From NCBI GenBank assembly GCA_963695555.1, contig CAVOGR010000001.1, forward strand, positions 672,001-736,000: DNA of 64,000 nucleotides, in the 5' to 3' direction. This DNA is from an uncultured Gemmatimonadales bacterium. GTDB taxonomy: Bacteria > Gemmatimonadota > Gemmatimonadetes > Gemmatimonadales > GWC2-71-9. A program made the translations under genes and the position numbers. Every line of letters starts with the position of its first letter. Position 1 is the stretch's first letter. A model generated the notes under the pieces. The model did no database searches. It saw nothing but the letters and a program-made list of their open reading frames with translations, and was not told the origin of the DNA. Below are positions 1 through 9,829 of this stretch, piece after piece.

Positions 1-98
1 ATCTCGTCGTCGGTATTGACGACCGTGAAGCACTCCTCCCGTGCCGGATCGGCGGCGAGGACAAAGCCGCGGATCTCCTTGGTTGGTGCACTGTTCAC
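1..98 (-). CDS. N-terminal fragment of a probable DUF455/ferritin-like protein (runs off the window edge)
   Basis: GTG at 98 overlaps the TGA of the 95-670 ORF (GTGA coupling); open to the edge: MNSAPTKEIRGFVLAADPAREECFTVVNTDDE. Family call rests only on a PAR-x-x-x-F-like motif and context. Confidence 0.5.
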   Translation of the reverse strand, partial: MNSAPTKEIRGFVLAADPAREECFTVVNTDDE

Positions 99-670
99 GA
101 CGAGACCCTCTCGAGCGTCTGTGGCGGCGCGGGGCGGAAGGCGATGAAATCCGCCGGCGCCTTGGCGATGGACTCGAACCGGCTCTTCCAGCCCTTGTCC
201 TTGGGCCGGAGGTCCGGTCGCTGGTCACGGAATTGCCGGTAGTCCGCTTGCATGCGCTGGAAGTCGCTGAGCACCCGCTCGATGACCCGGACGGACGGTT
301 CGTCCTGCATCTGGTTGGTGCCGTCGAGATAGGCTTGATAGCGCTGCTCGAGATCCGGCAGGAACCCGGCATACATCGCCTCCGCCCGCTCCGCCGTGTC
401 GGTCAGACCGGCGAGGGTGTCCAGCACCTTCATGTAGGCGTCGGTGGGCCGGGCGCTGTAGTGCAGCGGCGCTCTGAGCTCACTGGTGCGTTGGCCCAAC
501 CCGTCGGCTTGCTGGGCCATGTCCCAGATGTGGCGGCCGAACAAAATCTTGGCCTCGAGCTCCGGGGTGAGCGGTACCCAACGGGCCAGCGTTTCCATCA
601 GGTTGACGCTGATGAAACGAAACGTGCCAATGGCGTCGGCTCGCTCGCGAATCGTGTTGTATCCCATCAC
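95..670 (-). CDS. Ferritin-like four-helix-bundle protein (DUF455-associated type)
   Basis: 191-aa helical ORF, METLARWVP..PELEAKILFGRHIWDMAQQAD..QRTSELR and YLDGTNQMQDEPSVRVIERVLSD; coupled to both neighbours by overlaps. Confidence 0.6.
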   Translation of the reverse strand: MMGYNTIRERADAIGTFRFISVNLMETLARWVPLTPELEAKILFGRHIWDMAQQADGLGQRTSELRAPLHYSARPTDAYMKVLDTLAGLTDTAERAEAMYAGFLPDLEQRYQAYLDGTNQMQDEPSVRVIERVLSDFQRMQADYRQFRDQRPDLRPKDKGWKSRFESIAKAPADFIAFRPAPPQTLERVSS

Positions 671-1686
671 ACATCTCCTAGGGCTTCAATGAGGTCCGTA
701 GTGTCATCTGGCGTGCCAACGTCGAGAAAGAAACAGCGCGTGCTCGACATGAGACGCAGCATCTGCATGATTCGCAAGGCCCGTGGCACACCCCACAACG
801 TGCACCCTAGCGGCGTCAGGAGCGACAGGTGGTCGCGTCCCGGGCTGAACCCTTCGAGGTGGGCTGTCTCGCTGAATCGCCGCAGGAAGATAATCGCGCG
901 CACCGGCGCTTCGGAGTGACCGGCGCCTGGGAACAGGCTGGCCACCTCGCCTCGCAGGCGGCGGGAACCGTCGGGGAATTGTTCGTGGCGCAGTCCTCCC
1001 TGCTCGACCAGCCGGTCCACGGCACGCGGGCGCGGGCCCTCGCGAATCGATACCGACCGGCGCATTGGGATCAGGTCCAGCGTGCCGACCCTGACTCCGG
1101 CGATCTCGTCGCCCAGGAACCCGTGTCCGCGCTCCGCCAATGCGAGAGAGAGGGTCGTCTTCCCCGATCCCTTCGGCCCCACCAGGAGAATTCCCGAGCC
1201 CCGGACGCTCGCCGAGGCGGCATGAAAGAAGAGGAGGTCGCGCTGGCGTCTGAGCAGTCGGTTGAGCGCCAGATTGCCCAGGAGCGACTGCCACTGGAAG
1301 TCGCGATCGGCCAGAGCGTGGGGGCCGGAGAACGCGAAGGGAGCCCCAGGGCCGGGAGCATCGAGCCGGCGCCATCCGGCGGACGGCGGCTGCCCCTCGG
1401 TGTATCCCCGCTCGCCGAACAGCTCGAGCGTGAAGTCCACCAGGTCGAGCGGCTCGGCATCCTCGAAGCTGACCAGCGCGGCGTTGAATCGTTCGAGCAG
1501 CCGCACCTGGCAGAGTACCCTTGGCAGGTCCGCCCGATCGGGGCCCGGGACGACGCACTCGGCGTAGAGTTCCCGGAACCGCTCACCGAGCGGTTCGTCC
1601 TCGGACTGGATGCCCAGATAGCCGTCCCCGATCTGATACCAATCGGGGAGGCCCGTGAGGGGCCTCCCCGATTCCTGCTCCTGCAC
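667..1686 (-). CDS. HPr kinase-like P-loop kinase (HprK-related / RiPP kinase-like)
   Basis: FHAASASVRGSGILLVGPKGSGKTTLSLAL...FLGDE: His motif, Walker A and DE motif of HprK-related kinases. Start placed at GTG 1686 (uncertain). Confidence 0.75.
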   Translation of the reverse strand: MQEQESGRPLTGLPDWYQIGDGYLGIQSEDEPLGERFRELYAECVVPGPDRADLPRVLCQVRLLERFNAALVSFEDAEPLDLVDFTLELFGERGYTEGQPPSAGWRRLDAPGPGAPFAFSGPHALADRDFQWQSLLGNLALNRLLRRQRDLLFFHAASASVRGSGILLVGPKGSGKTTLSLALAERGHGFLGDEIAGVRVGTLDLIPMRRSVSIREGPRPRAVDRLVEQGGLRHEQFPDGSRRLRGEVASLFPGAGHSEAPVRAIIFLRRFSETAHLEGFSPGRDHLSLLTPLGCTLWGVPRALRIMQMLRLMSSTRCFFLDVGTPDDTTDLIEALGDV

Positions 1687-1763
1687 CGCAATCGACTGGC
1701 TACACCACTGGGAGATTGCGTCTGACGCGCCCGCCAGGTTGGGCTGGCCGTGCGTCACATCAT

Positions 1764-1790
1764 GGGCGATCCGAGGGTTCGAATCGGCCC
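1764..1790 (-). terminator. Stem-loop directly after the precursor-peptide stop codon
   Basis: Minus-strand GGGCCGATTCGA-ACCC-TCGGATCGCCC folds into a ~11-bp stem; no U-tract. Confidence 0.5.
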
Positions 1791-1922
1791 TCAGCCCCAC
1801 CAGGACGCGCCGGCGCTCGTAATCTGGAACGCCTTCAAGACCTCGGCCTCGTCCATGACTTTGACTGCGGGGGCCACATAACGGCGCCGAGTCGACTCCG
1901 ACTGCATCTTCTGTTCGGCCAT
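1791..1922 (-). CDS. Putative RiPP precursor peptide (43 aa)
   Basis: MAEQKMQSESTRRRYVAPAVKVMDEAEVLKAFQITSAGASWWG; GGAG 7 nt before ATG; YxxPxV leader motif; lies directly downstream of a PqqD gene. Confidence 0.8.
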   Translation of the reverse strand: MAEQKMQSESTRRRYVAPAVKVMDEAEVLKAFQITSAGASWWG

Positions 1923-2051
1923 GCGATAACTCCAACGATTAGGGGGAAATCGAACAAGTAAATGTAAGAACTTTTCACCTCGGGCGCCAGCCTGGATTCC
2001 TTGCCGCCCGACGACTGTCAAACAATGATACAACGAACCGGCCGCCCTGTA

Positions 2052-2324
2052 TCACGATGACTCGACAATCAGGTCGAGTCGCTGGAACTCCTCGAGGACG
2101 CGCTGGACGTCGGCGGTGGCGGTCGCCACGTCGACACCGTCGAACGACTCACACACCTCGGCTGCCAGCTCCTCCACGGTGCTGGGGGAGGAGAGACAGT
2201 TCCACAACAGCGTGGAGGTCTCGTTCAGGACGCAGAATTGCTTGCTTGACGGGTTCAGGAGAATCGTCTCTTCCAGCATCGGCGATCCCTCGATGTTGGG
2301 ATTGCGCCGGTATCGAATGCTCAC
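2052..2324 (-). CDS. Stand-alone PqqD-family RiPP recognition element (RRE)
   Basis: 90 aa; ETILLNP..QFCVLNETSTLLWNCL..PSTVEELAAEVCESFD..ATADVQRVLEEFQRLDLI is the PqqD pattern; AAGGAG RBS before GTG. Confidence 0.9.
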   Translation of the reverse strand: MSIRYRRNPNIEGSPMLEETILLNPSSKQFCVLNETSTLLWNCLSSPSTVEELAAEVCESFDGVDVATATADVQRVLEEFQRLDLIVESS

Positions 2325-2383
2325 CGCGGGCTCCTTGGTCAGTGACGATGTGGAACTCTGTCATGGTCAATGTGGTACGACTG

Positions 2384-3262
2384 TCAAGATGGACGGCGCC
2401 CGCCCGAAAACGACTCGGCGGTCTTGGATGGTGGCGCGGCCACCGAACGCCGGACCAGCTGCCGGAACGGAACCACCAACTGATGCGGCAACGACTCCGG
2501 CATATCCAGCCCATCTACCCCGTAGCGTTCCGGACGCTCGGCGTGGGCGGCCGCCGTGCCGAACAAGTGGTCCCAGAGGCTGAGCATCTGTCCCAGGTTC
2601 TTGTTGTGGTCCTTCGGGTCCGCCGAGTGATGCACCGAGTGGAAGATGGGGCTGACCACGATGCGGTAGAGCGGACCGAACCGCCAGTTGAGCTCCGTAT
2701 GGTGGAGCGCCTGAAGCGAGGTCGCCAAAATGTAAAGCGGCATCCACGACCGAGTTGGAAGGCCGAGGGCAAACACGAATACCACGAACAGCGCAACATC
2801 GAGCAGCAACCGGTCGAATGGATGCCGACGATATTGCGTGAGCGTGGTCAGCCGCTCTTGCGAGTGGTGGACGCTGTGAAATGCCCAAAGGAGCGGCACG
2901 CTGTGCTGGAGCCGGTGGACCCAGTAGAGCAGGAAATCGCCCGCCACCCAAAATACCAGCAATGCGAGCCAGAGAGGCGCCGACGCCAGGAGGTCGAATT
3001 TGAGGAACTGGAGTTTCGCTTCGAAGGCGTTGGCGACTGCCGCGAAAATCAAGATATGGTAGAAGGCGCCACGGTAGAAGAGGCTATATACCACGTCGTT
3101 CAGGAAGCTTCTCGTCTTGTAGCGGGCGAGATCCGCCCCGGCCCGACCTTCGAGCACCACAATCGCCGCCAAGAATGGCAAGAGCAAGAGCCCGGCCCTG
3201 ACGGCGGACATGCCAAGCTCTTGGAGACGCATGGTTGCAACCAGTTCTGCCAGTGTGCTCAC
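2384..3262 (-). CDS. Sterol desaturase / fatty-acid hydroxylase family membrane di-iron enzyme
   Basis: His boxes HRLQH, HSVHH, LHH, HSVHH, plus NKNLG..LSLWDHLFGT; several TM segments. Confidence 0.9.
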   Translation of the reverse strand: MSTLAELVATMRLQELGMSAVRAGLLLLPFLAAIVVLEGRAGADLARYKTRSFLNDVVYSLFYRGAFYHILIFAAVANAFEAKLQFLKFDLLASAPLWLALLVFWVAGDFLLYWVHRLQHSVPLLWAFHSVHHSQERLTTLTQYRRHPFDRLLLDVALFVVFVFALGLPTRSWMPLYILATSLQALHHTELNWRFGPLYRIVVSPIFHSVHHSADPKDHNKNLGQMLSLWDHLFGTAAAHAERPERYGVDGLDMPESLPHQLVVPFRQLVRRSVAAPPSKTAESFSGGRRPS

Positions 3263-3363
3263 GGTGCGGTCGGGAATTCCCTCGAAGAAGTATGATGAAA
3301 TGGTTCGAAACCCGGCGAACCGTAATCACGCGGTCTCGGCGGGGTCAACCTTTTCGGGGAATC

Positions 3364-5388
3364 TCAATCGAATTCGGCCTCGAAGTGCCGGGCCCAGGCC
3401 GCGAGGCCGACCAGCCGCCAGACCAAGAAGCTGTTGCGCAGCTGATCGCCTTTGGAAATCCGGCTCAGGAATCCCGACAGCGGTTGCCCCGATTGGACCG
3501 CCACTAGCAAGCGCTCGACCACTCGTCGGTTGACCGCGGGAATCCGACCGGCCTCCGCCAGCAAACCTGGCAGGTTCGGGACCAAGGGAATCCACGCCTG
3601 AATGGGGACGGCAAACCCTACCTTGTCACGCCGATCCAGGATGGCGTCCGGCACCAGGCCCCGCATAGCAGCCCGGAATACCGCCTTGCTCGTGCCTGAA
3701 GCGTCCACCAGATACTCGGCTGGGAGGGACAGGATAAATTCGGCGAGTTTGGTGGTGAGGAACGGCAGCCGCCCCTCGACCGAATACGCCATGGAGTTGC
3801 GGTCCTCGTAGCGCAGCAGGGTGGGGAGGCTTTTCTCGCTGATCGAATGCCACAGGGTGCGCCGAATCCCTTCCTTGCCGACACCCACCCACCAGAGGTT
3901 CCGCGTCCCGATGCCGTGAGCTCGGCACCACGCGCGGTCGATCCAGGGACGCTGGCCGCGCCCGGAGGCCTTGACGGCAGCGGTACCGAGCCAGGCCGGC
4001 AGGGCCATGGCGAGACCCCACAGGGCGGTGTGGCCGGCCGATGGATCCCAGGGCTGGCGCGAGGCCCTGGTTTGCCTCAGAAAGCGCGCCGCTTGGCCTA
4101 TCTGGCCGCGCCCCAGATGCTCTGCCATCCGAGCCGACCACAAGTAGCGATATCCGCCTAGGAGTTCGTCCGCTCCCTGCCCATCCAGGACCACCCGCAC
4201 ACCCGCTTCACTGGCGCGGCGGAATAGGCGGTTCTGGGCATAGATGGCGATGGTGCCGAACGGCTCATCCTGCGATTCGATGAGGTGGTCGAATTCCCGG
4301 ACCCATTCCCCCGGATCGAGGTGGATCTTACTGCTCACGGCCCCGGATGCCTTGTTGACCACATCGATCCAAGGTTCTTCGCTCACGGTGCCGGCGCCGC
4401 CGATATAGCTGAATGTGTGAATATCGAGTTGCGGGCCACCCAAATGCCGCATCGCCATGACGATGGCCGAGGAGTCGAGGCCTCCCGAGAGCATGGTGCC
4501 GACGCGAACATCGCTGCGCAGATGAAGCGAGACGCTTTCGAGGAACAGGTCCCTGAGCTCGGCTGCCGCCGCTTCGCGCGAGACGGCTCGTTCATAGTCC
4601 AGGTCCGGCATCCAATAGCAGCTGGGCTCAGTCATGCCGGGGCCGTCCGGGCGGACTTCGGCCCAATGGGCCGCCGGCATGCTCCGGATGCTCGAGAAGA
4701 GCGTCGCTTCGCCGAAATCGGTGATGCCGCGGTCTAGGTAGTCGTAGAGTCGGTGTGGGTCGACCCGGCGATCGGTGCCGGGCAGCTGCAGGAGGGCGGA
4801 TATCTCGGACGCGAAGGCGAACTCGCCGTTTCGCAGGGTGTAGTACAGGGGCTTCATGCCAAAGGGGTCGCGGGCCAGGAAGAGTCGTCGGTCGCGCCGA
4901 TCCCAAACAGCGAAGGCGAACATCCCGACCAAGCGGGGCAGGCACGCCCGGCCCCATTCGGCATAGGCGGCCAGGAGCACCTCCGTGTCCGACCGCGAGC
5001 GGAATCGATGTCCCCGCGACGACAGCTCGTCCCTCAGCTCGACGTAGTTGTAGATCTCGCCATTGAACACGATCGCATAGCGGCCGTCGGCGGTGAGCAT
5101 CGGCTGATGGCCCGCCGAAGATATATCGATGATGGCGAGGCGCCGATGGCCGAGGACGAGGGTGCCTGATGCGGATCCGGCCTCGTTCGACGCTCCCGTA
5201 CCCTCGTGTGGGAGTGAGGTGCGTCGACCGTCGCGATCGATGGTCGCCGTCGATCCCTCGCGGGGGCAGTCGACCAGGAAGCCCAGATCGTCAGGCCCCC
5301 TGTGGGCAAGCCGATCGAGCAGGCCGCGCACGGTTGCCAGCGCGACCGTCCCCTCACGATGCCCGAGGTATCCGACGATGCCGCACAT
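3364..5388 (-). CDS. asnB: Asparagine synthase (glutamine-hydrolysing)-like amidotransferase
   Basis: MCGI N-terminus, LGHRRLAIID, FNGEIYN, LSGGLDSS, LDGQGADE, EDRNSMAYSVEGRLPFL. Confidence 0.9.
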   Translation of the reverse strand: MCGIVGYLGHREGTVALATVRGLLDRLAHRGPDDLGFLVDCPREGSTATIDRDGRRTSLPHEGTGASNEAGSASGTLVLGHRRLAIIDISSAGHQPMLTADGRYAIVFNGEIYNYVELRDELSSRGHRFRSRSDTEVLLAAYAEWGRACLPRLVGMFAFAVWDRRDRRLFLARDPFGMKPLYYTLRNGEFAFASEISALLQLPGTDRRVDPHRLYDYLDRGITDFGEATLFSSIRSMPAAHWAEVRPDGPGMTEPSCYWMPDLDYERAVSREAAAAELRDLFLESVSLHLRSDVRVGTMLSGGLDSSAIVMAMRHLGGPQLDIHTFSYIGGAGTVSEEPWIDVVNKASGAVSSKIHLDPGEWVREFDHLIESQDEPFGTIAIYAQNRLFRRASEAGVRVVLDGQGADELLGGYRYLWSARMAEHLGRGQIGQAARFLRQTRASRQPWDPSAGHTALWGLAMALPAWLGTAAVKASGRGQRPWIDRAWCRAHGIGTRNLWWVGVGKEGIRRTLWHSISEKSLPTLLRYEDRNSMAYSVEGRLPFLTTKLAEFILSLPAEYLVDASGTSKAVFRAAMRGLVPDAILDRRDKVGFAVPIQAWIPLVPNLPGLLAEAGRIPAVNRRVVERLLVAVQSGQPLSGFLSRISKGDQLRNSFLVWRLVGLAAWARHFEAEFD

Positions 5389-5468: not shown

Positions 5469-6461
5469 CTAGTTCCGTTGCTTCGTCGCCAGGTTACTCG
5501 TGAGGGGAGCGGAGAAGGTCGGCGGAGTCTCCTGGACGAGCAGCTGGGTCAGGACGCGCGTCGCGAGGCTGCCGACTGTCATTATCCCATCGGTGTCGAT
5601 CAGCGCGACATCGTCGCGGGGCGTGTGGTATTCGCCGTGAAGCCCGGTATGGAAGAAGAGCACCGGTATCTGCGCCATGAAGAAGCAATACTGATCGCTG
5701 GCCCCCAGTAATTGGCTGTTGTCCCCGTGGGTCGCCAGTTGGCTTGCGCCCGCATCGTTCAGCATCGTCATCCAATCGGCTGACGAGGAGGAGCCGATCG
5801 TCCAGAGCCCGTTCTGAGCGTAGCGCCCCACCATGTCCAGGTTCAGCATGGCCGCGACACTGTCCATGTTGATCGTTGGCTGGCCACAAAAATGCGTGGA
5901 ACCAACCAATCCGAGTTCTTCGGCGCCATAGGCCTGGAATAGCACCGAGCGCCGGTCTCGACCGGCCATGTTGCCGCCGGCCACGTACGTGCTCAGGGAG
6001 CGGGCGATTTCCAACAGCAGGGCCGTTCCCGATGCGTTGTCGTCGGCGCCGTTGTAGACCAGGACGGAGTCCGGTCCAACCTGGATGAATCCCACGTGAT
6101 CATAGTGGGCCCCGATGACCACCCACTGCCGGGCGAGGCTCCCGTGCCCGGGCAGGATCGCGAGCACGTTTTGCGACATCCGACCCTGCTGGAGTTGAAA
6201 GTGCTGGAGGTACCCGGGGGTACCGGGTCCGAGGCCGTAAGCCATGAAATGATCGCGCAGGTACGCCGCAGCCTGGGTCTCCTGGGAGGATCCCGCCTGG
6301 CGTCCGGCCATGCTGTCGTCGGCCAGCGCGCCGAGGTGCTCGAGCAGATTGGCTTGGCTCAGCGACGGGGAGGGAGGGGTCGGAGTGGTGTCGTCCCGAG
6401 GCGCTGCCGGGGAGCTGCAGGCGGCGAGCCCGAGGAGGGCCAGGTGAACGAATCCCTTCAT
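5469..6461 (-). CDS. M28 family metallopeptidase, lipoprotein
   Basis: Lipobox LAAC; GAHYDH, NGADDNASG, AEELGLVGS, YHTPRDD. Confidence 0.9.
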   Translation of the reverse strand: MKGFVHLALLGLAACSSPAAPRDDTTPTPPSPSLSQANLLEHLGALADDSMAGRQAGSSQETQAAAYLRDHFMAYGLGPGTPGYLQHFQLQQGRMSQNVLAILPGHGSLARQWVVIGAHYDHVGFIQVGPDSVLVYNGADDNASGTALLLEIARSLSTYVAGGNMAGRDRRSVLFQAYGAEELGLVGSTHFCGQPTINMDSVAAMLNLDMVGRYAQNGLWTIGSSSSADWMTMLNDAGASQLATHGDNSQLLGASDQYCFFMAQIPVLFFHTGLHGEYHTPRDDVALIDTDGIMTVGSLATRVLTQLLVQETPPTFSAPLTSNLATKQRN

Positions 6462-6620: not shown

Positions 6621-6671
6621 ACCGTGCTGTCGACTTTTGAGCCTTGTGTCCAGCTCGTAAAACGGAATGGT

Positions 6672-7052
6672 ATGCCGACGATCAACCAGCTCATCCGCCG
6701 AGGCCGCCGGCCGCTCCGCGCCAAGGACAAGGCGCCGGCGCTCAAGGCCAATCCTCAGAAGCGGGGAGTATGCACTCGCGTGTACACCACTACGCCGAAG
6801 AAGCCGAACTCGGCGCTTCGCAAGGTGGCGCGCGTGCGGCTGACCAACGGGTTCGAGGTGACGGCCTACATTCCGGGAGAGGGGCACAATCTCCAGGAGC
6901 ACTCGATCGTGCTCATCCGGGGTGGCCGGGTGAAGGACCTGCCGGGGGTACGGTACCACATCATCCGGGGCACGCTCGACTCGGCCGGGGTCAACGACCG
7001 CAAGCAGAGTCGCTCGAAGTACGGGGCCAAGCGTCCGAAGGGCGGATCATGA
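6672..7052 (+). CDS. rpsL: 30S ribosomal protein S12
   Basis: [36 protein letters not shown]. Confidence 0.99.
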
Positions 7053-7519
7053 GCCGTCGAACGAGGGCCACGAAGCGTCAGGTTCCGCCGGATCCGCGGT
7101 ATGACAGCCAGACGGTGTCGAAGTTCATCAACAACCTGATGTCGTGCGGCGAGAAGAGCACGGCCGAGGGCATCTTCTACCGCGCGATGGACTTGATCGA
7201 GCAGCGCACCGGGCAGGCGGGTGTGGCGGTGTTCAAGCAGGCGCTGTCCAACGCCAAGCCGGCCGTCGAGGTCAAGAGTCGGCGGGTGGGTGGTGCGTCG
7301 CTGCAGGTGCCGGTCGAGGTCCGTCCCGATCGTCGGACGGCGCTAGCCATGCGGTGGCTCATCGGCTTCAGCCGGGCGCGGAGCGAGCGCACCATGGAAG
7401 ACCGGCTCGCGACAGAGTTGGTCCTGGCCTCGAAGGGCGAGGGGAACACGATTAAGAAGAAGGAAGACACGCACCGGATGGCCGAGGCCAACCGCGCGTT
7501 TGCTCATTATCGCTGGTAA
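7049..7519 (+). CDS. rpsG: 30S ribosomal protein S7
   Basis: [30 protein letters not shown]. Confidence 0.99.
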
Positions 7520-7738
7520 GTAACCCTGAGCCGGCGGGGGAGGCGAGCCCGTCGACGTAGTGACACATCGGGCTATGTGACGCGGAGCAGCGTCACCTCT
7601 GGTCTTCTGAAAGCACAACGCGTGGGGTCACGGCTGGCTCCTCATCGTCAGGCGAATGCCTGGATGACGCGCGGAGCGATACCACCCGGACTGCCGGGGC
7701 TCGGTCGCCCCGCTTTTTCGCAGGATAGAGTTGAGGAT

Positions 7739-9829
<2,091 letters not shown>

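Follow-up and report, generated by a model that had tools for sequence, protein, structure and literature searches.

A probable ribosomal peptide gene cluster combining an LPP-type gene set with an obligatory trio of ferritin-like proteins in Gemmatimonadota and other phyla

Among RiPPs, the peptides that ribosomes synthesize and that are modified after translation, the Linear Polyphosphorylated Peptides (LPPs) of Bacillota, encoded with LppA/B/K/S/N/D (Nat Commun 2026, PMC13381572), are the described system closest to the gene cluster analyzed here, which lies at the left end of a 64,000-nucleotide stretch of DNA (the window; positions 672001-736000 of a genome contig) from an uncultured Gemmatimonadales bacterium with a genome of 3.57 Mb and 87% completeness. 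According to the part of that paper and its supplements that was available, which also delimits all further statements on LPPs, the defining set of an LPP cluster comprises a RiPP recognition element (RRE), an HprK-like kinase, a signal-peptidase-I-like (SpI-like) peptidase, an NTP transferase and a precursor with a YxxP motif in its leader. The leader is cut after F-E-T, with F-3, E-2 and T-1 all required, the RRE is needed for this cleavage, and Ser3 of the core takes several phosphates. LPPs were called restricted to Bacillota (PMC13381572).

Parts of this gene set also occur in two other known arrangements. Paeninodin-type lasso clusters have in common with the present cluster a PqqD-type B1 protein recognizing a [Y/W]xxP leader, an HprK-like kinase, an NTP transferase and an AsnB homologue, and the HPr-rel-A system (TIGR04352, HprK-related kinase A; TIGR04353, PqqD family peptide chaperone) shows the same placement of a PqqD gene next to a kinase gene. 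The HPr-rel-A models were the best or near-best NCBIfam matches in the present case, yet they stayed under their cut-offs (45 vs 200 and 26 vs 35 bits).

The present cluster has counterparts, with the kinase as a putative one, of four of the five LPP core genes, has the YxxP leader (PMC13381572) and carries, unlike the LPP core set, three ferritin-like proteins, namely u191 and two members of the DUF455 family (DUF455a and DUF455b). Our preferred interpretation is that the locus directs the biosynthesis of a small ribosomal peptide, in which an LPP chassis is combined with an obligatory ferritin-like oxygenase module and in which LPP-type recognition, phosphorylation and cleavage would be joined by a di-iron oxidation of a Trp pair. 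A probability of about 0.7 is assigned to this reading. It builds on the observed gene content, conservation, motifs, leader and core pattern and folds, from which every chemical step is deduced.

For the comparison with other genomes, 401 genomes of the phylum were queried with the 190-aa protein u191 (window 95-670), and a second collection was obtained by a pattern scan with one genome per species, which gave 84 relatives, 80 of them retained. Based on the record titles, the hosts of the 80 loci were Gemmatimonadota (45), Acidobacteriota (27), Proteobacteria (4), Methylomirabilia (2) and Rokubacteria (2). Co-occurrence was counted in 39 related loci for which both flanks extend over at least 7 kb, in the following called long loci. 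The kinase, PqqD, DUF455a and DUF455b were each found in all 39, and u191 together with both DUF455 genes was always located directly after the kinase, in 39/39 long loci from four phyla. In all 15 close loci fetched from the phylum search, the genes for PqqD, a homologous small open reading frame (ORF), the kinase, u191 and DUF455a followed each other in the same order. Since this order and the conserved peptide ORF recur in 15/15 phylum loci and across the 80-locus collection, the locus is more than a chance arrangement.

An earlier note on this stretch, made from the letters alone, had described seven co-oriented genes, and all seven were found at their places in the ORF list of the window, all on the minus strand. 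Its proposal of an RRE-dependent RiPP-type cluster with a conserved precursor and integral ferritin-like proteins is supported by the counts above; the lack of a peptide ORF in homologous loci, which the note had named as speaking against it, was not observed in any of the 15 phylum loci. The co-occurrence check that the note had suggested for homologues of u191 gave PqqD and the kinase in 39/39 long loci and the YxxP...WW peptide in 66 of 78 loci, and the cluster does continue past position 1, by about 8 kb on the left.

Predicted recognition, kinase and leader-cutting genes

The discrete RRE of the LPPs is matched by a PqqD-family RRE protein of 90 aa (2052-2324, minus strand; PF05402 56.8 bits, cut-off 23.4), which is present in 39/39 long loci. 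The HprK-like P-loop kinase (667-1758, minus strand) lies on the other side of the peptide gene. Its start is uncertain, the ORF being open to 1935 (667-1935). The listed reading frame runs into the peptide gene, and orthologues have a length of 342-379 aa, so that the likely start of the kinase is the in-frame GTG at 1758, which gives 363 aa, or a later codon. The overlaps of stop and start codons described in the earlier note, between kinase and u191 (667-670) and between u191 and DUF455 (95-98), follow from the ORF coordinates. In an alignment of eight kinase orthologues (A6), G-K-T of the Walker A motif, an upstream His and a downstream Asp were invariant. The best PDB sequence matches were HprK chains (E about 0.01), and HprK models matched below threshold (TIGR04352 45 bits, cut-off 200; PF07475 25 bits, cut-off 33.3). 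The protein is a candidate counterpart of the LPP kinase LppK. Within the kinase gene, a stretch of 33-38 nt recurs inverted at a second place (1435-1472 and 1641-1673; 91% identity) and also matches another contig (G000:C4:27448-27485) with 89% identity; this probably reflects a chance similarity of GC-rich sequence.

The other two counterparts are located left of the window, where coordinates are given on L004, a stretch including 12 kb left of the window (window coordinate = L004 coordinate - 12000). The SpI-like peptidase is matched by an S26-type homologue of archaeal-type signal peptidases (L004:9806-10513, plus strand), which lies 1.5 kb left of the window and is found in 34/39 long loci. 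Its best model was TIGR02228 (sigpep_I_arch; E 5e-7, 29.7 bits), and G-x-S-M, H-R, G-D and D were invariant in 13 sequences. The spacing of Ser79-His117-Asp142 (38 + 25) is almost identical to that of S29-H68-D93 in LppS (39 + 25; PMC13381572). The NTP transferase is matched by NTP_transf_5 (L004:5967-7154, minus strand; PF14907 53.2 bits, cut-off 31.2), likewise in 34/39 long loci.

A structure prediction of the RRE protein with the precursor, made with the alignments of PqqD proteins (A4) and peptides (A3), was rated as weak support, with a score of 0.53 compared to 0.01 for the best of three controls. The runs agreed in at least 90% of the contacts, and the pLDDT (predicted local distance difference test) of the partner did not fall below 58. 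When the score was calibrated, the mark was passed for 116 out of 157 solved complexes and for 2 out of 215 mismatched pairs; passing scores of 0.60 or lower comprised only 18 of the 157 solved complexes and both of the passing mismatches. Since RRE-leader complexes have already been solved, the pass may reflect likeness, and the prediction was not used as evidence.

The statement of the earlier note that the cluster matches no known RiPP class has to be divided. As far as the available part of the LPP paper goes, the recognition, kinase and leader-cutting set is that of the LPPs and is already known, so that the locus maps by half to a described class; what lies outside that paper and is new are the three obligatory ferritin-like proteins, the short core with Trp-Trp and the hosts beyond Bacillota (PMC13381572). 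The putative leader peptidase and the NTP transferase are encoded outside the window and were thus not visible to the earlier reading. A few Acidobacteriota SpI homologues beside 'other' RREs are listed in the LPP supplement in small clusters of the sequence similarity network (3, 7, 13 and 33) and may overlap with the present family. In the available text of that paper, 'ferritin' does not occur in the main part, and DUF455, PF04305, HTTM and Gemmatimonad do not occur in the supplements (PMC13381572).

Literature searches for HprK, PqqD, precursor peptide and ferritin-like proteins in combination returned nothing, and those for DUF455 with RiPPs nothing relevant. A search for polyphosphorylated peptide RiPPs returned only the LPP paper plus a chemistry paper, one for HTTM with RiPPs only linaridin work, and one for ferritin-like or diiron enzymes in RiPPs the papers on MNIO and HDO enzymes, nothing of which resembles the present cluster. 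The RRE-Finder paper contains no mention of a kinase, ferritin or Gemmatimonadota.

The likeness to lasso clusters requires a separate consideration. The best NCBIfam matches of the PqqD protein were lasso-type PqqD chaperones, under their cut-offs, and the AsnB-like protein (3364-5388, minus strand) reached 289.7 bits with the lasso cyclase model NF033535. Both would be consistent with a phosphorylated, paeninodin-like lasso cluster in which the AsnB homologue is the macrolactam cyclase, as would the weak GATase domain of the Ramlibacter AsnB homologue and the ABC exporter present in that locus. However, the cut-off of the cyclase model (525) was not reached, whereas the true asparagine synthase model was passed (TIGR01536, 422 bits, cut-off 267), and the glutaminase domain is intact, in contrast to paeninodin-type clusters: the protein comprises GATase_7 and Asn_synthase domains with a Cys directly after the start Met. 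Furthermore, the AsnB gene is missing from 8/39 long loci. A transglutaminase-type B2 cysteine protease was found neither among the genes of the window cluster nor by Pfam among 143 flanking ORFs (13 + 130) of 14 related loci. In agreement with the earlier note, the same scan showed no YcaO, LanB/M or adjacent radical SAM protein, the only radical SAM matches being two ORFs 6-7 kb from the PqqD gene of one locus (L119). Finally, the peptide of this genome contains no Asp or Glu after FQ, and hence no side-chain carboxylate for an isopeptide ring and no acidic ring-closing residue at core position 7-9. Of all alternatives considered, a lasso peptide is regarded as the least probable.

Precursor peptide and its variants

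The precursor gene (1791-1922, minus strand) comprises 43 codons and a stop codon, with a GGAG 7 nt before the ATG, and has homologues by tblastn. Its landmarks are Tyr15 (1878-1880), Pro18 (1869-1871), Phe32-Gln33 (1824-1829) and Trp41-Trp42 (1797-1802). While tblastn detected a homologous ORF in 15/15 phylum loci, an ORF with YxxP, FQ and WW was present in 66 of the 78 loci scanned. Eleven of the twelve loci without it are contigs that end before the gap between PqqD and kinase, which leaves one real miss (L109). In 39 aligned peptides (A3), Tyr15, Pro18, Leu29, Phe32, Gln33, Trp41 and Trp42 were invariant and Glu25 and Thr35 nearly so; the N-terminal part is variable, the segment from YxxP to FQ conserved.

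A comparison of the 59 distinct peptides showed a spacer of 7 residues between Gln and WW in 48 cases, some of the 11 others being artefacts of the regular expression, and a Ser or Thr directly before WW in 50. The tail after WW is hypervariable and comprises 1-12 residues, in 37 of the 59 only 1-2. The conserved segment from YxxP to FQ, the fixed WW and the hypervariable tail constitute a leader and core pattern. If Phe32, Gln33 and the aliphatic residue 34 are equated with the LPP cleavage positions -3 to -1, the last nine residues (35-43, window 1794-1820) would represent the core. Compared to the LPP precursors, YxxP and a later invariant Phe are found here too, while the stretch between them differs, and a short core with an invariant Trp-Trp is a feature of the present family. 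Two near-identical precursor genes occur in each of the loci L088 and L090, one before the kinase and the other several kb downstream.

Some of the variation in the tail is reflected in the gene content. Of the 8 long loci whose peptide has Cys as its last residue, 7 contain a gene for an HFCD flavoprotein (PF02441; L101, L106, L110, L114 (7601-8383, plus strand), L115, L119 and L120), with L100 as the exception, compared to 0 of the 31 others. The HFCD family performs the oxidative decarboxylation of C-terminal Cys. The co-variation suggests such a decarboxylation in the Acidobacteriota and Alphaproteobacteria variants, and it is a further RiPP signature. Methyltransferases and ABC exporters in some of the loci were also counted toward the RiPP character. 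In the proteobacterial loci L094, L107 and L120, a third DUF455 paralogue is located between the peptide gene and the kinase; in these loci, the spacer in front of the Trp pair is longer and the tails contain Cys, and an ABC exporter and a methyltransferase are encoded as well.

The ferritin-like trio and the proposed oxidation

Only the first 32 codons of DUF455a lie in the window (3-98, minus strand), as the whole gene (L004:11301-12098, 265 aa) runs past the left window end. The protein matched PF04305 with 106 bits (cut-off 34.3). DUF455b, encoded left of it, comprises 260 aa, is 38% identical to DUF455a and matched the same family with 77.2 bits. In 20 aligned sequences (A2) covering both paralogues, the ligand set E...ExxH...E...ExxH was invariant in 20/20. 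The AlphaFold2 (AF2) model of DUF455a showed a pLDDT of 87.6, and its best Foldseek matches were aldehyde-deformylating oxygenase (E 6e-4), PaaC and R2lox. By sequence, the family profile matched bacterioferritin with E 8e-5 and PaaC with E 0.013. The top PDB sequence match of DUF455a, Crov588, was rejected, since it is a repeat-protein artefact composed of many weak stretches. The literature naming DUF455 gives, among the matches listed, no function and does not concern RiPPs.

The second component, u191 (95-670, minus strand; 190/191 aa), matched no Pfam or NCBIfam family, and its alignment (A1) contains no invariant ExxH pair. It was modeled by AF2 as a helical bundle with a pLDDT of 91.8, for which Foldseek returned weak but consistent matches (E about 0.06, query TM-score 0.52-0.69) to the hydroxylase chains of toluene-4-monooxygenase (T4MO), CADD, PqqC and PaaC. 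The model thus points to a ferritin-like protein at the level of the fold only and not of sequence families, so that of the paired ferritin-like proteins claimed in the earlier note the DUF455 member stands by its family match and the protein at 95-670 by its predicted fold alone. A profile search against 1.84 billion representatives gave 893 clusters with E<=1e-3, 319 with E<=1e-10 and 31 with E<=1e-30, which makes u191 a small family.

PaaA/PaaC, the T4MO hydroxylase, aldehyde-deformylating oxygenase and R2lox have the four-helix bundle and the E...ExxH...E...ExxH set in common with the DUF455 proteins, and the ligand-poor u191 resembles the non-catalytic subunits of PaaA/PaaC and the T4MO hydroxylase. 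The fusion of u191 to DUF455 in other genomes, the constant proximity of the genes and the overlaps of their stop and start codons lead us to argue that u191 may serve as one of the subunits in a heteromeric di-iron enzyme, comparable to the partners without catalytic function in PaaA or the toluene monooxygenase hydroxylase. The differences to the known di-iron oxygenases are the marginal sequence similarity given above, the proposed substrate, which would be a peptide, and the lack of a reductase or effector component conserved in the cluster. Among the relatives of this fold (PaaA, T4MO and R2lox), the reactions comprise the hydroxylation or epoxidation of aromatic rings and the formation of cross-links.

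Fusions occur in further genera of the Gemmatimonadota, where a single open frame of about 450-720 aa contains a u191-like domain and, C-terminal to it, a DUF455-like one. Examples are L021:1357-2817 (plus strand), L022-L034, L130, L132 and L133, with no Pfam match and no RRE nearby; the set of fused proteins was taken as 14 loci, of which one (L030) stems from an unpublished genome (G157), and no claim is based on L030 alone. In two genomes (L130, L133), the fused gene adjoins a GH38 alpha-mannosidase and prolyl oligopeptidases. The reversed order, DUF455 followed by u191, was observed in L127, L128 and L129, from two Rokubacteria and one of the two Methylomirabilia, where PqqD, kinase and peptide had no match nearby. 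Neither the surroundings of the fused proteins nor those of the Rokubacteria loci pointed to a substrate.

The existence of fused proteins outside RRE contexts, together with the match of RRE, HprK-like kinase, SpI-like peptidase, NTP_transf_5 and YxxP to the LPP core set, would also be consistent with an ordinary LPP-type cluster for a phosphorylated linear peptide, in which the ferritin-like genes serve iron handling or a neighboring pathway. However, the trio is found in 39/39 long loci of four phyla directly after the kinase, is joined to it here by overlapping stop and start codons, and DUF455 occurs nowhere else in this genome. Moreover, both paralogues keep ligands of the catalytic type and resemble oxygenases more closely in their fold than storage ferritins. 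In the LPP domain matrix, as far as available, 'Ferritin' appears once, among the SpI neighborhoods of the main network cluster, and DUF455 never (PMC13381572). A plain LPP cluster is thus considered quite improbable.

With an LPP chassis and an oxygenase module, the following sequence of steps can be proposed. The PqqD/RRE protein would bind the YxxP of the 43-aa precursor, and the HprK-like kinase would phosphorylate a Ser or Thr of the core, for which the Ser/Thr right before WW and Thr35 are candidates. The two DUF455 proteins with their full di-iron ligands and the ligand-poor u191 would form a heteromeric oxygenase that oxidizes the core, most probably at the invariant Trp-Trp, by hydroxylation and/or cross-linking; the oxidation is placed on the Trp pair because WW is the only invariant part of the core. 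In analogy to LppS, the S26 homologue may remove the leader after the F-Q-aliphatic triplet, leaving the nine-residue core. The product could then be tailored or handled by the AsnB-like, formyltransferase, FA-hydroxylase-type (fatty-acid-hydroxylase-type) and NTP_transf_5 proteins and by HTTM with its partner. More specifically, but only tentatively and at clearly less than even odds, u191 and the two DUF455 proteins are seen as a heteromeric ferritin-like di-iron oxygenase acting on a ribosomal peptide, which would turn Trp-Trp into a hydroxylated or cross-linked, possibly quinone-like unit and would make the cluster a Gram-negative sister class of the LPPs.

Several points weigh against these proposals. 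No specific link connects the di-iron proteins to Trp apart from the invariance of WW, the TM-scores of DUF455a in Foldseek are only about 0.5, and every Foldseek match of u191 lies above E 0.05. The kinase assignment is based on sub-threshold matches confined to the P-loop region, and the S26 match is under the NCBIfam cut-off (29.7 vs 51.85 bits). Concerning the phosphorylation, no Ser/Thr position is invariant in the peptides: some Acidobacteriota peptides have Pro, His or others in place of Thr35, WW is preceded by Gly, Ala, Cys, Gln or Val in 9/59, and no conserved residue corresponds to core Ser3, which is the phosphosite of the LPPs. From Tyr to the putative cut, the leader exceeds that of LppA by 5 residues, and the MsbA-like exporter of the LPPs was not found in 18 kb around the cluster, an ABC exporter being present in only 7/39 long loci. 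The fused proteins without RRE context imply that the module has another native substrate elsewhere. Finally, RRE binding, phosphorylation, oxidation and the product of the cluster are all deduced from sequence and models.

The conservation of the Trp pair can also be interpreted differently, namely with the peptide as a scaffold whose C-terminal WW is oxidized by the di-iron proteins and excised as a small indole-quinone-type cofactor or pigment. In the case of PQQ and mycofactocin, a PqqD-type protein presents the peptide, and a Trp-Trp quinone chemistry of the TTQ (tryptophan tryptophylquinone) type exists. WW as the only invariant core part at a fixed distance of 7 residues from FQ, the 1-2 residues after it in 37/59 distinct peptides, the two or three oxygenase paralogues beside an amidotransferase, a formyltransferase and a peptidase, and PqqC among the fold matches of u191 would fit this explanation. 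In contrast, many members carry long tails after WW, some of them Cys-rich and with matching tailoring genes (HFCD 7/8), and the cluster contains neither a second peptidase to release the dipeptide nor a conserved dependent enzyme nearby. In addition, u191 matches were found in 34/401 phylum genomes, 16 of them close (E<=1e-44), while the two further genomes from its own genus gave no match. The spread within the phylum is hence patchy, indicating an accessory nature, and a secondary metabolite suits this better than a cofactor. An excised cofactor or pigment is therefore unlikely, and a modified peptide on the LPP chassis remains the preferred reading.

Accessory genes, neighborhood and significance

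From the window leftward, the order is DUF455a, DUF455b, the S26 peptidase (plus strand), a formyltransferase (PF00551 107 bits), a 238-aa protein with an HTTM membrane protein (PF05090 30.8 bits), NTP_transf_5 and a second pair of an unnamed protein with HTTM. The two pairs are located at L004:7171-8819 and L004:3963-5548, and beyond them follows a 2-oxoacid:ferredoxin oxidoreductase. The 238-aa partner matched no Pfam or NCBIfam family and only unnamed clusters in the protein atlas. In the related loci, an unnamed protein of about 210-240 aa has a vitamin-K-carboxylase-like HTTM membrane protein after it in every case, and the pair is repeated 1-4 times per cluster, with up to four pairs in L102, L110, L117 and L119.

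On the other side of the trio and the peptide gene, the window contains a membrane protein of the fatty-acid-hydroxylase superfamily (2384-3262, minus strand; PF04116 96 bits), for which OlsE was the closest NCBIfam model; an identity with OlsE was ruled out, as its 88.6 bits are far under the cut-off of 475. The genome encodes four full-length Asn_synthase homologues, besides one short match, and the AsnB-like glutamine-dependent amidotransferase belongs to these four without having the best score. Since the core lacks a side-chain carboxylate, the likeliest target of this enzyme is the carboxylate at the core's C-terminus; as described in the available part of a recent paper, AS-like enzymes modify the C-terminal carboxylate of RiPPs (PMC13060819). 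The right boundary of the cluster is marked by an M28 peptidase (5469-6461, minus strand), followed by rpsL, rpsG and fusA (within 6624-9829, plus strand).

In the long loci, the formyltransferase occurred 32 times, AsnB 31, the FA hydroxylase 26, HTTM with its partner 25, the ABC exporter 7, the HFCD flavoprotein 7 and the methyltransferase 5 times. The AsnB, formyltransferase, FA hydroxylase and HTTM genes are additional to the LPP set. In L046 and L075, which belong to one contig, the tblastn matches of kinase, DUF455a, HTTM and FA hydroxylase are each split into two or three pieces, due to either frameshifts of decay or assembly errors.

The FA hydroxylase, the formyltransferase, the amidotransferase and HTTM would fit an envelope chemistry. 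It could thus be argued that no RiPP is formed at all, that the small ORF encodes a regulator or chaperone and that the enzymes modify a lipid or polysaccharide. OlsE as the nearest named relative of the hydroxylase would agree with this, as would the polysaccharide genes (Wzy, Bac_transf, DegT, MurJ, Wzz) that adjoin L094, L090 and L100 and, according to the available part of the LPP paper, the finding of LPP clusters also in capsule loci (PMC13381572). On the other hand, the small ORF shows leader and core conservation, an RRE-type YxxP and a hypervariable tail, HFCD co-varies with the C-terminal Cys, and the flanks of the window cluster consist of the 2-oxoacid:ferredoxin oxidoreductase, the M28 peptidase and ribosomal genes and not of envelope genes. 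An envelope function without a RiPP is accordingly judged very improbable.

With the present loci, the LPP architecture extends beyond Bacillota into at least four further phyla (the hosts here are Gemmatimonadota, Acidobacteriota, Proteobacteria and Methylomirabilia), and its chassis is linked to a proposed oxidative chemistry. A full cluster is present in the cultured Ramlibacter monticola KACC 19175 (L107), which offers an entry point for experiments, and DUF455 gains a testable substrate. If the reading of the trio is true, DUF455 would receive a function for the first time, and a ferritin-like di-iron maturase would for the first time be known from RiPP biosynthesis, for which MNIO/DUF692 and alpha-ketoglutarate-dependent enzymes were the iron enzymes found in the literature. 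If the Trp-Trp chemistry holds as well, the trio would represent a new enzyme class for the RiPP toolbox.

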